Source: Dictyostelium discoideum | Lineage: Eukaryota | Length of the DNA: 64,000 nucleotides | Direction of reading: 5' to 3' | Assembly: GCA_000004695.1 (NCBI GenBank) | Contig: CM000152.2 | Location: 4,576,001 to 4,640,000, forward strand | In this document: positions 30,291 through 37,515 of the stretch, one piece after another | How positions within the stretch are numbered: the stretch's first letter is position 1 | Layout: each line of letters starts with the position of its first letter | Notes under the pieces: model-generated | The model's database searches: none | The model's input: the letters and a program-made list of their open reading frames with translations, nothing else | Told to the model about the DNA's origin: nothing | Made by a program: the position numbers and the translations under genes

Positions 30291-30373
30291 GCAAGGGTAG
30301 GAAAGTCTGGTTAAATCCGTGTGACTTAAGATCTCATCCATTCGGTTCGCGAGTTCGAATCTCGCCTCTTGCA
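30291..30373 (+). tRNA. tRNA-Leu(UAA): tRNA-Leu (anticodon UAA), type II with long variable arm, 83 nt
   Basis: Acceptor GCAAGGG/CTCTTGC (one G·U). D-arm GGA…TCC. Anticodon stem TGTGA/TCTCA with loop CTTAAGA (UAA). Variable hairpin CCattcGG. T-arm GCGAG-TTCGAAT-CTCGC. Discriminator A. An identical inverted copy sits at 37433-37515. Confidence 0.75.
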
Positions 30374-30404
30374 AGCTTTTCCCAATCCTCAAATATGTGT
30401 TCGT

Positions 30405-30418
30405 ATGTTCGAATCTTG
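30405..30418 (+). promoter_or_regulatory. External B box (ex-B) downstream of tRNA-Leu: 'ATGTTCGAATCTTG'
   Basis: T-loop-like GTTCGAATC motif 32 nt past the tRNA 3' end, typical of Dictyostelium tRNA genes. The mirror copy lies at 37391-37407 for the minus-strand tRNA. Confidence 0.55.
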
Positions 30419-30465
30419 TTTTGTCCATTTAACGATTGATCAATATTATATAGATTTTTTTGAAG

Positions 30466-30567
30466 AAAAAAACCGTACCGCGATCAAGAGGATACAAGAT
30501 ACACGTGAAAACAGAAATCATTCAAAAACCGTACCGCTATCAAGAGGATACAAGATACACGTGAAAA
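30466..30567 (+). repeat. Tandem duplication (2 × ~44 bp core + 12-bp spacer) in the retrotransposon 5' UTR: 'aaaaaccgtaccgc(g/t)atcaagaggatacaagatacacgtgaaaa'
   Basis: Direct reading. Two near-identical copies differ at one position. Resembles the duplicated 5' modules that carry promoter activity in TRE elements. Confidence 0.7.
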
Positions 30568-30692
30568 GTAATTCATCCTTTTCTATCCTTAATCTCGGTC
30601 AATTTTAACCAATCTTTCGAAAAAAATCACCAATCCACCACGATCTACAGATCTAACTTACCAAATCGCCGATTCAAAGGAATCCCATCGAG

Positions 30693-31943
30693 ATGAATTC
30701 CTACGCAGACGCGGCTAAAATGGCCAACCCCTCCACCCATATGGACGAGGCATCGGAGAACTTCATTAAGGAATTCTCCACAAAAACAGCAGAGATAAAG
30801 GAAACTTACCCCAAACTATCAATAGGCCTCAAAGACATCTCCAAATACTGCGAGACCATATTGAACATGACTGCGCTCTCAACCTACGAGAAGAACAACG
30901 GATTCTACCCAATTACACTCGAATTCCCCAAAATGGATCTCAAGGGGTTAGAAGAAATGAGAAAAACACTCTCAAACTACGATATCCCAATCGACAAGAT
31001 ATACATAGGCAAAGGAACTAGAAAAATGATCCACCTGATGATTAAAAAAGAACAATCTCTCCTAAATATCATTAGAGATAGAAGCAAATTGGGAACCTTC
31101 ATCACCTCCAGTAGAGACTTCCACGTTCTCACAGGAAGAGTAAGAATTCCCAGAGAAAAGGCAGGAATAGTGGACGCCCTCATCAAAACTGCCTTTGCAG
31201 AAGAAATACCCTATGCAATATACAATACTATATACTCCACCGACCACCTCATAGTATTCGGTCTAATAGAATGCAAAATAGGCGATCAAATGAAATCTGG
31301 CCAACACATTACAGAAATCGCAAACTTTACCATCAGAACGGCCACCAAAACCTACTCCTCACAAAAGAAAAACAAGAAAGTAGAGACAAACAACACGGAG
31401 GAACCATTAGAAGATAAGATGACAGATCCTCCTAACACTCAAAACAGGATAGCAATCAAATCCTCTCAACCAAAACCACAACAACAAACAAACAACCCAG
31501 CAAACAATCAGTCTGATAAACAATCAACACAAGAGAAAAAAGCCCAAGCAAAAAAGTCATCTCAACCTCTTCCCCCCAAAAACCCAGCAGAATCTCAATC
31601 TGTCAAACCCACCACAACCACTACCACAACATCCAACGCCATCCAAAAAGACAATGCCAACAAAACAAGCACTAACATCCATTCATCCTCGGAAAACAGA
31701 GAGAAGACACTAAACATCCCTCCATCACATAAACGCAAGAACGAGGAAATCCACTCAAACAATGAAGTCACCCAACTCTCACCAACAATAAACAGAAGCA
31801 ACCCTTACATCCCATCCACCCCTAAGACACCTGTCAAAAAAGAAAGGAAAGGAATCATTGAGAGCTTCATAGAGAGTATCTACCCTTCACCATCCAAACC
31901 GCAGCTATACGACTCCCAAGAGGAGATCGATATCATCTCATAA
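30693..31943 (+). CDS. Retrotransposon ORF1 (416 aa), nucleic-acid-binding/gag-like, with a basic S/T/P/Q-rich C-terminus
   Basis: ATG at 30693. The stop TAA overlaps the ORF2 ATG (…CTCATAATGG…). Composition typical of non-LTR ORF1. Confidence 0.65.
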   Translation: MNSYADAAKMANPSTHMDEASENFIKEFSTKTAEIKETYPKLSIGLKDISKYCETILNMTALSTYEKNNGFYPITLEFPKMDLKGLEEMRKTLSNYDIPIDKIYIGKGTRKMIHLMIKKEQSLLNIIRDRSKLGTFITSSRDFHVLTGRVRIPREKAGIVDALIKTAFAEEIPYAIYNTIYSTDHLIVFGLIECKIGDQMKSGQHITEIANFTIRTATKTYSSQKKNKKVETNNTEEPLEDKMTDPPNTQNRIAIKSSQPKPQQQTNNPANNQSDKQSTQEKKAQAKKSSQPLPPKNPAESQSVKPTTTTTTTSNAIQKDNANKTSTNIHSSSENREKTLNIPPSHKRKNEEIHSNNEVTQLSPTINRSNPYIPSTPKTPVKKERKGIIESFIESIYPSPSKPQLYDSQEEIDIIS

Positions 31944-35744: not shown

Positions 35745-35781
<37 letters not shown>

Positions 35782-36257
35782 ATATTATTATTATTTTCAC
35801 CAATAATAATAATAATAATAACTACACTTTATTTGATAATCCAAATTTTAAAAAAGAAAAACTACTTTACATTTTAAAATTAAAAACCATAAATAAAAGT
35901 ATTAATAATGGTTTCCTTTATTTTTAATTTGATATTCAATTGTTAACTTCTTCACTTAATGCTTATATTTATTATCAAATCTTATTGTATTTCAGATTCA
36001 GTGCTTCCGAACATTGACTCCCACAACCAATTTATTTAATTAATAATAATAACATATTTTAATACTGTGTGGCACAAAAGTAAATAAAAAAAAAAATAAA
36101 TTAATAAAATAATAATTATATAATAATAAAATTAAAATAAAAAAAAAAGATAATTGCATTATTTAAAAAACGCCCGTAATTTTTATTTAAAACACCTTTA
36201 AATAAAAATTAAAACAATAACATTTTATAAAAATTATAACCAATTTGAACTAATTTA

Positions 36258-36782
36258 TTAAATCTTTGCCAAAATTCCACATGCTACTCTTGCTCCAGCA
36301 TTTCCAGTTGTTTTTGATAAATTTCCTCCTAATCCTAAATCATCTTGATTTTCGTGAACTACCAATGTTCTCCCAATTATTGACAAGTCCCCGAATAGAG
36401 AGATAACGTTATCTTGTATTAATACGTTGGCAACTTTACTAGAAGGACATGATGTTATATTCCCTAAATCACCAACATGACGAATTGCACTGTTTGGACC
36501 ACCATGTTCAACATGAAATGGATTGAAATGTGCTCCTTTAAAATAATTAATCTAAAATCAGTATAACAAAAAAAACTCTTATAATAAAATTATAAACCTC
36601 TTACCTGCACTTAAACAACCATTGCTTGTATCTCCAAACTCGTGAATATGAAAACCATGTAAACCACCGCTTAACCCACTAATAGTACCATTCACATAAA
36701 CTGGAGATCCTTCATTTTCTTGTGAAAATATTATAGTTCCATTTACAACTGCCCCTTTAACCACACAAATAGCTTTTACCAT
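36258..36782 (-). CDS. Cu/Zn superoxide dismutase gene, 2 exons: complement(join(36258..36536,36605..36782)). In this sequence exon 2 carries an apparent +1 frameshift (extra A on the plus strand at 36480/36481). Possibly a pseudogene or a base-call error
   Basis: Exon 1 '[10 protein letters not shown]…[21 protein letters not shown]' then GTAAGAGG; a 68-nt intron; exon 2 '[18 protein letters not shown]'. The canonical continuation '[14 protein letters not shown]…[16 protein letters not shown]…[15 protein letters not shown]' lies in the +1 frame. The junction reads 'attcgTtcatgttggtgat', where the conserved R-H-V-G-D would require 'cgtcat'. All metal-ligand His residues and the C-terminal '[10 protein letters not shown]' are otherwise conserved. 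Confidence 0.6.
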
Positions 36783-37390
36783 TATTATTTAAATAATATA
36801 TATTTTAAATTGGATTATGAAATAGGTGTTAATCAATATTAAAAAAAAAAAAAAATAAGAAAAAAAAAAAAAAAAAAAATAATGGTGTGGTAATTTTTTT
36901 TAATGAGATAAATAATTATTATATATTACAAATTATTATAAATTTTCAATGTGGTTATCATTTAAATTTGTAAAATTATTACAAATTTTTTTTTTTTTTT
37001 TTATTATTATGTAATTTATATCATGGATAAATTTATATGATTAATTTTATTTATATTGGTTCTAAAAAATCCATTTATGTTCAAATAATAATCTCAAAAT
37101 TATTTTATGAGATTGTTAAACAAATTCATTAAATTTGAAATCTTAATTTATATTTAGTTTTGATTTTTTGGTTATTGAATACTGATGAAAATTAAAATAC
37201 TTTTTATAAAGAAAAAAAAAAAAAAAAAAAAAAATAAAATAAAATAAAATAAAATAAATAAAATAAGCGATTGCCCGTAAGTAATTAAGATCTTTAGTTT
37301 GAAAAAAAATTTCCAAAAATAATCTCCATAAGGACTGATGAATTATTGGAGTCTACAAAAAAATCCTCTTCCAAGAATTTTTAGACAAAT

Positions 37391-37407
37391 CAAGATTCGA
37401 ACCTATG
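37391..37407 (-). promoter_or_regulatory. External B box of the minus-strand tRNA-Leu
   Basis: GGTTCGAATCTTG on the minus strand, 26 nt downstream of the tRNA. Confidence 0.5.
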
Positions 37408-37432
37408 ACCATATTTCTGTTGCCCAAAAGCT

Positions 37433-37515
37433 TGCAAGAGGCGAGATTCGAACTCGCGAACCGAATGGATGAGATCTTAAGTCACACGGATTTAACCAGA
37501 CTTTCCTACCCTTGC
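37433..37515 (-). tRNA. tRNA-Leu(UAA): tRNA-Leu (anticodon UAA), second copy, inverted relative to the copy at 30291-30373
   Basis: 83/83 nt identical to the plus-strand copy when reverse-complemented. Also shares about 14 bp of 5' flank ('aaaattccatccaa'). Ex-B box 'cataggttcgaatcttg' (minus) at 37391-37407, 26 nt past the 3' end. Confidence 0.75.

Follow-up and report, generated by a model that had tools for sequence, protein, structure and literature searches.

A conserved convergent tRNA-Leu(UAA) pair around sodD in Dictyostelium, with a TRE3-type insertion and probable repeated inversion of the enclosed block

The stretch of Dictyostelium discoideum DNA analyzed here (assembly GCA_000004695.1, contig CM000152.2, positions 4,576,001 to 4,640,000 of the forward strand; 64,000 nt in all, referred to as the window) contains two convergent tRNA-Leu(UAA) genes and, between them, a full-length TRE3-type retrotransposon without long terminal repeats (non-LTR) and sodD, the gene for Cu/Zn superoxide dismutase 4. 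Having compared the sodD locus in nine assemblies, we consider it very probable that, taken jointly, the tRNA-Leu(UAA) genes form an old bracket around sodD, that the TRE3 element was inserted recently downstream of one of them, that the flanks of the two genes have undergone gene conversion, and that the block containing sodD has been flipped at least twice. The comparison reveals a small gene cassette bracketed by tRNA genes and, by all appearances, repeatedly inverted. The TRE3 insertion next to sodD in D. discoideum chromosome 3 is already known biology; the recurrent inversion of sodD is the only part of our findings that may be new.

The tRNA-Leu(UAA) pair and its flanks

The locus was reached through sodD orthologues in nine assemblies covering five named species: an AX2-type D. 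discoideum (FIT, locus L008), two diverged D. discoideum isolates (FIR, L013; FIW, L014), two cryptic isolates designated 'D. cf. discoideum' (FIZ, L009; FIY, L015), two D. citrinum (FIU, L010; FIV, L016), D. dimigraforme (Ddim, L011) and D. firmibasis (Dfir, L012). These are Nanopore plus Illumina assemblies (PMC12745789), together with the published D. firmibasis genome, and one contig was examined in each. Over 18.6 kb (27232-45860), the window shows 23 mismatches and 13 gaps relative to the AX2-type locus (GCA_054883475.1, CM142509.1).

Detection of tRNA genes was carried out with ARAGORN on the 64-kb window and with the Rfam model RF00005 (gathering score 29). Exactly two genes were found, both tRNA-Leu(UAA) and convergent, each scoring 49.1 bits and with no difference between their 83-nt sequences; the initial annotation of the window, made from the letters alone, had described such an identical and inverted 83-nt pair, which is confirmed here. 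We refer to the plus-strand gene as the EMC3-side copy and to the minus-strand gene as the GH130-side copy (GH130, glycoside hydrolase family 130). Together with part of their flanks they make up a gapless inverted repeat of 135 nt and 94% identity, the sole substantial inverted repeat in the region. The 5' flank common to both genes, given before as about 14 bp, is an exact match of 15 nt (AAAAATTCCATCCAA, positions -16 to -2), and at position -1 the copies differ (G vs A).

The same convergent pair surrounds sodD in all nine assemblies, always between the same flanking genes, namely an epimerase gene and EMC3 on one side and a 554-aa gene and a vinculin-like gene on the other. Moreover, the 83-nt gene body is identical in the 18 copies (two per assembly). 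Since all of them are identical, the identity of the window's two copies is uninformative on the age of the pair, and it probably reflects constraint on the tRNA. D. firmibasis and D. discoideum are separated by 50-100 million years (PMC12745789). On these comparisons the pair appears to be an old, conserved bracket around sodD and not a recent product of the inverted duplication that had been proposed from the identity of the genes and their common flank. Such a recent inverted duplication would account for the identical genes, for the 15-nt exact 5' flank and for the 135-nt repeat at 94%; nevertheless, a recently duplicated pair would be marked by absence of the second copy from related species, and every assembly, D. 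firmibasis included, carries both copies in the same convergent arrangement and among the same neighbours. In addition, the flanks match within species and differ between species, which points to later homogenisation, and we regard a recent duplication as scarcely credible.

Pairs of tRNA genes with the same anticodon, identical in sequence and a few kb apart, are a feature of D. discoideum to which this pair conforms. According to the 2005 genome paper, such pairs are reportedly usually read as recent duplications. The pair around sodD differs in being conserved across five named species, and at least some identical Dictyostelium tRNA pairs would then be tens of millions of years old rather than recent duplicates. 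Convergent pairs of same-anticodon genes are common in the genome; another one, of tRNA-Thr(AGU), was seen in locus L001 (8481-8552 on the plus and 8957-9028 on the minus strand, ~400 nt apart). The D. dimigraforme cassette contains an extra tRNA-Leu(CAG) gene (L011, 8058-8139) between the GH130-side tRNA-Leu(UAA) and sodD.

The flanks of the two copies have a history of their own. Over the first 45 nt upstream, the strongest likeness is that between the two copies of one genome, with z values of 13-17 in D. discoideum and 11 in D. firmibasis; in D. dimigraforme the two 5' flanks give a z of 6 over the first 60 nt. The 5' flank common to the two genes is peculiar to D. discoideum. Both D. discoideum 5' flanks carry the sequence TTTGGTAAAAAATAAAAATT(C/T)CATCCAA, which matches the EMC3-side flank of the cryptic isolate FIY, and the GH130-side flank of D. 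discoideum compared with that EMC3-side flank gives z values of 6-12. The GH130-side flanks of FIY, FIZ and D. citrinum consist of another sequence and are mutually alike (z 6-10). Because the D. discoideum GH130-side flank matches the EMC3 side of FIY and not the GH130-side type, it seems to have been overwritten by sequence of the EMC3-side type. The GH130-side ex-B region (external B box, see below) of the window's lineage likewise holds the EMC3-type AATCTTG.TTTGTC, which explains why the ex-B 12-mers of both copies are identical. With moderate confidence, we read the likeness of the D. discoideum flanks as the outcome of non-reciprocal transfer (gene conversion) between the inverted copies; weighing against this reading, there is only one alignment column in which both copies co-vary in every D. 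discoideum isolate.

Downstream, each gene of the pair is followed by a likely RNA polymerase III (Pol III) terminator and then by an ex-B box. A run of four or more T residues stands at +3 to +5 in 14 of the 18 orthologous or paralogous copies, and since the likely T4 terminator precedes the ex-B box, the latter would lie outside the transcript. In the window, which has a G+C content of 24.6%, the exact 9-mer GTTCGAATC occurs four times only, corresponding to the two internal B boxes and the two ex-B boxes. The initial annotation was right in placing an ex-B box (GTTCGAATCTTG) behind each gene; the distances had to be corrected to 33 nt on the EMC3 side and 30 nt on the GH130 side, from 32 and 26.

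Ex-B boxes of Dictyostelium follow the consensus GTTCRAnYC and are located ~41 bp downstream of 66% of the tRNA genes (PMC3159450), and the copies described here resemble them in sequence, in distance and in their position past the T4 terminator. What is new is the comparative support. Of the 18 copies from the nine genomes, 17 have a GTTCRAHYC motif at +31 to +37, amid flanking sequence too divergent to be aligned from one species to another. Such motif conservation is good, clean comparative evidence that the ex-B box is likely to be functional and under selection. The sole ex-B box of the 18 that departs from the consensus belongs to the EMC3-side copy of isolate FIR (L013, about 10250), where GGATCGAATC stands against GGTTCGAATC.

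Orientation of the sodD block

As the initial annotation had it, a superoxide dismutase gene lies between the tRNA genes. This is sodD, on the minus strand, with a 151-aa product that is 100% identical to the AX4 protein 'Superoxide dismutase [Cu-Zn] 4'. Comparison of the loci showed that it occurs in two orientations relative to the collinear flanks. One of them, state A, is found in D. discoideum (the window and three assemblies), D. dimigraforme and D. firmibasis; in the other, state B, sodD is flipped, as seen in the two assemblies each of D. cf. discoideum and D. citrinum (L009, L010, L015 and L016, with sodD at 9001-9540 in each). Loci of the same state are collinear, and every comparison of A with B, by tblastx and blastn, shows a central block of 1.0-1.4 kb inverted, with no other gene changing orientation in the 18-kb loci. 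The AT-rich spacers were compared by filtered blastn, low-stringency blastn being swamped by low-complexity matches.

A neighbour-joining tree of the flanking genes joined D. discoideum with the two D. cf. discoideum isolates, FIY and FIZ, in 200 of 200 bootstraps. The tree of the inverted block had the same shape, D. discoideum and FIY being grouped in 300 of 300 replicates and a clade of all state-B sequences in 0 of 300. In both trees D. discoideum, itself in state A, falls among lineages of state B. One old polymorphism therefore fails to explain the orientation, because orientation does not follow the history of the sequence. Read on these trees, the distribution of states appears to require that the sodD block was flipped at least twice among group-4 dictyostelids. 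The simplest account is a change from A to B before the split between D. citrinum and D. discoideum, followed by a change from B to A in D. discoideum proper, and the window probably shows the ancestral orientation regained secondarily.

The inverted states could in principle stem from errors of assembly, or from lineage sorting of a single old inversion polymorphism, given that inverted repeats can mislead assemblers and that a single contig represents each assembly. The repeats are, however, just ~100-135 nt long, the assemblies combine Nanopore with Illumina data (PMC12745789), and the states agree across independent assemblies (three of D. discoideum plus the window, two of D. cf. discoideum and two of D. 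citrinum). As for a sorted polymorphism, it is the species tree, not the orientation, that the block's own sequence tracks, as the 0 of 300 for the all-B clade indicates. We judge either explanation to be very improbable, and return to repeated inversion as the preferred reading.

The inversion breakpoints fall ~70-400 nt behind each tRNA gene, inside the pair and not within the tRNA genes. Thus, in the comparison of D. discoideum with FIY, 68 nt next to the EMC3-side tRNA gene stay collinear, and in that of D. citrinum with D. dimigraforme the GH130-side flank is collinear out to +165. The breakpoint interval includes the zone of TRE3 integration, which is at 76 nt in the window and at 64 nt in D. 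firmibasis. Apart from the tRNA unit (102-135 nt, 94-98%), no genome has a substantial inverted repeat around the block, and a search for a second one at the breakpoints yielded nothing but pairs of A-runs and T-runs.

Inversions flanked by tRNA genes are known in Saccharomyces and in plastid genomes (PMC3302566; PMC3104136), and PMC3302566 states, citing Kellis et al. 2003, that all 20 inversions among the compared Saccharomyces species are flanked by tRNA genes. The sodD block resembles these in that a short inverted segment is enclosed by same-type tRNA genes on opposite strands. It differs in that the breakpoints are 70-400 nt from the genes, outside the repeated tRNA unit, that the proximal flanks are not inverted, and that the inversion recurs at one locus. 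Our searches of the Dictyostelium literature found nothing that ties tRNA genes to inversions, and a paper on convergent gene pairs and chromatin loops makes no mention of tRNA.

Three mechanisms were considered for the inversions, one of them being microhomology between A-runs and T-runs. The first is homologous recombination between the inverted tRNA-Leu repeats, as proposed for Saccharomyces. The tRNA unit is the sole substantial inverted repeat around the block in every genome, the block has apparently been flipped at least twice with all neighbouring genes collinear, and in the comparison of FIR with FIZ the tRNA-proximal 3' flank matches in inverted orientation; the Saccharomyces figure of 20 out of 20 (PMC3302566) points the same way. 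A crossover within the genes would, however, have carried along the collinear 68 nt and the flank out to +165, unless these were later overwritten, and we find this mechanism less likely than not.

The second mechanism, to which we give no more credence than to the first, invokes two breaks just inside the tRNA genes with the block re-joined in reverse, the breaks being due to the TRE3 endonuclease or to replication forks stalled at Pol III complexes; in a variant of it, recombination would have occurred between former inverted TRE3 copies, since lost. The breakpoint intervals, 70-400 nt downstream, include the TRE3 integration zone, and convergent tRNA genes would set two TRE3 copies as inverted repeats. 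On the other hand, no TRE3 remnants were detected by blastn or tblastx in any state-B cassette, and microhomology between A-runs and T-runs, which are ubiquitous in the spacers, could suffice without any tRNA gene. TRE3 remnants as a cause were also looked for by comparing all cassettes with the window's element (blastn, tblastx), and they were rejected, the matches being confined to D. firmibasis.

A broader interpretation is that the convergent pair is a recurrent inversion hotspot with breakpoints in the TRE3 zone, and that paired tRNA genes are long-lived and kept alike by gene conversion. We put this forward tentatively, as a possibility somewhat short of even. If true, it would link Pol III complexes or the TRE3 endonuclease to small-scale rearrangement in Dictyostelium, and should inversions of the sodD type hold genome-wide, tRNA genes or their retrotransposons would be tied to rearrangement in a compact haploid genome. 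Two observations count against giving the pair such a part. The 68-165 nt beside the tRNA genes are collinear and the breakpoints are outside the genes, so that the pair would be at most a putative cause of the inversions; and a 120-nt piece has come to lie on the other side of sodD without a change of strand, which a single inversion cannot yield.

The piece in question (AACATGTTTCTTTTT..GGTTCCAGCACAAA) is on the GH130 side in FIR and FIW (L014, 8398-8520) and on the EMC3 side, on the same strand, in FIY, where it lies about 157-276 nt from the EMC3-side tRNA gene (L015, reverse complement). It was not detectable in the window's lineage and was seen in three genomes only. Neither a single inversion nor any simple pair of inversions among those we constructed reproduces its position and strand.

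A further peculiarity of the block concerns the gene itself. Between D. discoideum and FIZ, sodD shows 87.5% DNA identity, compared with 94-97% for the epimerase, EMC3, GH130 and 554-aa genes, and judging by these values sodD appears to be diverging much faster than its neighbours.

The TRE3-type element and its placement

The element, co-oriented with the EMC3-side tRNA-Leu(UAA), begins 76 nt past that gene, and 1.65 kb separate its 3' end from the GH130-side gene. The initial annotation was correct in describing a full-length non-LTR retrotransposon here, and its bounds had to be corrected from 30440-35777 to 30450-35778. A perfect 10-nt target-site duplication (TSD, TCAATATTAT) was found when the two ends were searched for one, as had been suggested, and the probability of a chance match within 60 nt of slack is ~0.005. 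The first open reading frame (ORF1) encodes a protein in which no Pfam domain was found. ORF2 is in the -1 frame relative to ORF1, its ATG overlapping the ORF1 stop codon by one base, and its product matches RVT_1 (E=1e-33) and, weakly, Exo_endo_phos (E=0.006, residues 9-253); it is 100% identical to D. discoideum proteins, and its 90% identity cluster has 79 members. In AX4, the proteins corresponding to this ORF2 (EAL66727) and to sodD (EAL66728) have adjacent accession numbers.

TRE3 elements lie behind tRNA genes, at a distance of 40-150 bp and co-oriented with them, and have their ORF2 in the -1 frame (PMC5911963), the order of domains in the ORF2 of TREs being endonuclease, reverse transcriptase and a zinc-finger-like motif (PMC5006619). 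TRE5 elements occupy sites ~50 bp upstream of the tRNA gene, in head-to-head orientation (PMC3159450). In its structure, placement, orientation and TSD the element of the window has, as far as its sequence tells, all the features of a TRE3; the predicted placement downstream of the tRNA gene is borne out by the 76 nt measured, which is within the published range. A TRE5-type position was considered and is ruled out, as the element is downstream of the tRNA gene and co-oriented with it. In this it differs from TRE5 elements such as TRE5-A/DRE, which are related, L1-like, targeted to tRNA genes and have the same order of ORF2 domains.

Five further genomic loci encode the same ORF1. In four of them the 5' motif of the element, (A)nCCGCACCGCG, is 62-101 nt behind a tRNA gene on the same strand (Leu-AAG, Asn-GTT, Ser-TGA and one intron-containing gene), and at the fifth there is a tRNA-like remnant with a B-box-like motif. 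Downstream placement is thus a property of the family, as the four of five loci show, and not an accident of a single copy. About 61% of D. discoideum tRNA genes carry a TRE element (PMC5006619). The insertion itself is a textbook case for D. discoideum and says nothing new on Pol III-guided integration. At L005 and L001, which are adjacent (JBTAPE010000001.1, 3354919-3370669), two full TRE3 copies stand in tandem behind one tRNA gene, as would be expected if a second insertion at the same target had displaced the older copy outward.

Some reservations apply to the assignment. It relies on structure and behaviour, and among the matching proteins no TRE subfamily name appears, all the database names being 'hypothetical protein'. 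D. discoideum has the families TRE3-A to TRE3-D, of which TRE3-A is the most abundant, and TRE3-A is the likely subfamily of this element, solely because its family is abundant (the 79-member cluster). A literature search for AX4 gene identifiers gave no result, and TRE3-A primers looked for in PMC4559204 were not found.

There is nothing here that differs in kind from the known TRE3 elements of D. discoideum. The one difference is a 56-nt tandem duplication in the 5' untranslated region (UTR), detected by blastn of the element against itself, which is missing from most other copies. It contains two copies of a 44-nt unit, preceded by 16-18 nt unseen in other copies of the family. Blastn against loci L001-L007 showed that the 5' UTR elsewhere has one unit, a partial second one (L003) or another leader (L002), and the 5' ends within this TRE3 family therefore appear heterogeneous.

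Both the window and the AX2-type assembly (FIT) contain the element. No TRE3-like sequence was detected by blastn and tblastx between the tRNA genes of FIR, FIW, D. cf. discoideum, D. citrinum or D. dimigraforme, and the window cassette, once the element and one copy of the TSD are removed, is collinear with those of FIR and FIW. From the intact ORFs, the perfect TSD and the absence elsewhere, the insertion would be recent and have taken place in the lineage of the laboratory strains. The sequence of FIR and FIW differs around the insertion point, so that these two isolates attest the absence of the element but offer no exact empty site to confirm the TSD.

In D. firmibasis, a 1.36-kb TRE3-like insertion, 5'-truncated, is found at L012 9810-11198, 64 nt past the orthologous EMC3-side tRNA gene and co-oriented with it. 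It is flanked by a TSD of 15 nt (CAATTCTAAATTTTA), and it looks like a second, independent event at the same tRNA gene. The two ends of this insert show motifs resembling B boxes, GAGTTCGAACCCC and GATGTTCGATTCCC, as though pieces derived from tRNA had been joined to it.

By analogy with the TRE literature, the insertion is most likely to have proceeded in two steps. A Pol III complex (TFIIIC/TFIIIB) on the B box or the ex-B box would first position the ribonucleoprotein of the element; the endonuclease would then nick the DNA ~100 bp downstream of the internal B box, and reverse transcription would be primed from the poly(A) tail. Measured from the first base of each box, the element starts 97 nt beyond the internal B box and 43 nt beyond the ex-B box. 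The initial annotation had the element starting about 30-60 bp beyond the ex-B box, and the distance measured from the last base of that box, 31 nt, is in accordance with it.

A narrower matter is whether this insertion was positioned by the ex-B box in particular rather than by the internal B box; here we lean toward a negative answer while keeping a positive one in view. The start 31 nt past the ex-B box speaks for such a role, and so does the D. firmibasis insertion, which begins 24 nt past its own ex-B box. Relative to the internal B box, however, the same start is 97 nt from its beginning, and at four other loci copies of the family begin at a comparable distance, 62-101 nt past tRNA genes with no consensus ex-B box ahead of the element. 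Because these four copies sit behind genes without such a box, the ex-B box is not required for TRE3 insertion. Two further points tell against a targeting interpretation of this locus: the insertion does not separate targeting by the ex-B box from targeting by the internal B box, and guidance by TFIIIC/TFIIIB is a hypothesis for TRE3, the targeting experiments having been made with TRE5-A only (PMC5006619).

Feature coordinates and neighbouring genes

The features of the pair, of the element and of sodD are collected in Table 1, in which the role of the terminators is predicted from the sequence.

Table 1. Positions in the window of the tRNA-Leu(UAA) pair, the TRE3-type element and sodD
Feature	Position	Strand	Details
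Inverted repeat, left arm	30246-30380		EMC3-side tRNA gene with 45 nt of 5' flank and 7 nt of 3' flank
tRNA-Leu(UAA), EMC3-side copy	30291-30373	+	ARAGORN, RF00005; internal B box GTTCGAATC at 30353-30361
TTTT, likely Pol III terminator, EMC3-side copy	30377-30380	+	3 nt past the gene
Ex-B box GTTCGAATCTTG, EMC3-side copy	30407-30418	+	33 nt past tRNA-Leu(UAA)
TSD, left copy, TCAATATTAT	30440-30449	+	sequence
Full-length TRE3-type non-LTR retrotransposon	30450-35778	+	5329 nt including poly(A); ORFs, RVT_1, TSD
5' UTR, two copies of a 44-nt unit	30468-30511 and 30524-30567	+	period 56 nt; blastn against itself
TRE3 ORF1	30693-31943	+	416 aa; exact match to KAM9950204.1; cluster of 37 members
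TRE3 ORF2	31943-35647	+	1234 aa; endonuclease, reverse transcriptase, C-terminal Cys/His motif CPLC..H....C
Poly(A) tail of the element	35750-35778	+	29 nt
TSD, right copy, TCAATATTAT	35779-35788	+	sequence; directly 3' of the poly(A) tail
sodD (Cu/Zn superoxide dismutase 4)	36258-36782	-	exon 1 36782-36605, intron 36604-36536, exon 2 36535-36258
Ex-B box GTTCGAATCTTG, GH130-side copy	37391-37402	-	30 nt past tRNA-Leu(UAA)
TTTT, likely Pol III terminator, GH130-side copy	37426-37429	-	3 nt past the gene
Inverted repeat, right arm	37426-37560		pairs with 30246-30380
tRNA-Leu(UAA), GH130-side copy	37433-37515	-	ARAGORN, RF00005

Next to the pair, D. discoideum, D. cf. discoideum and D. citrinum carry the GH130 gene (37870-39132 in the window), which D. 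dimigraforme (L011) and D. firmibasis (L012) lack at this position. On the opposite side, the cryptic isolate FIY carries a gene for a 511-aa DDE_1 transposase between the epimerase gene and EMC3 (L015, 4952-6876), absent from the other eight assemblies. Farther away in the window, two tandem genes for PDR-type ABCG transporters (ABC_tran, ABC2_membrane and PDR_assoc domains) occupy positions 10992-21860 on the minus strand, each made up of three ORFs and with a period of ~5.8 kb.

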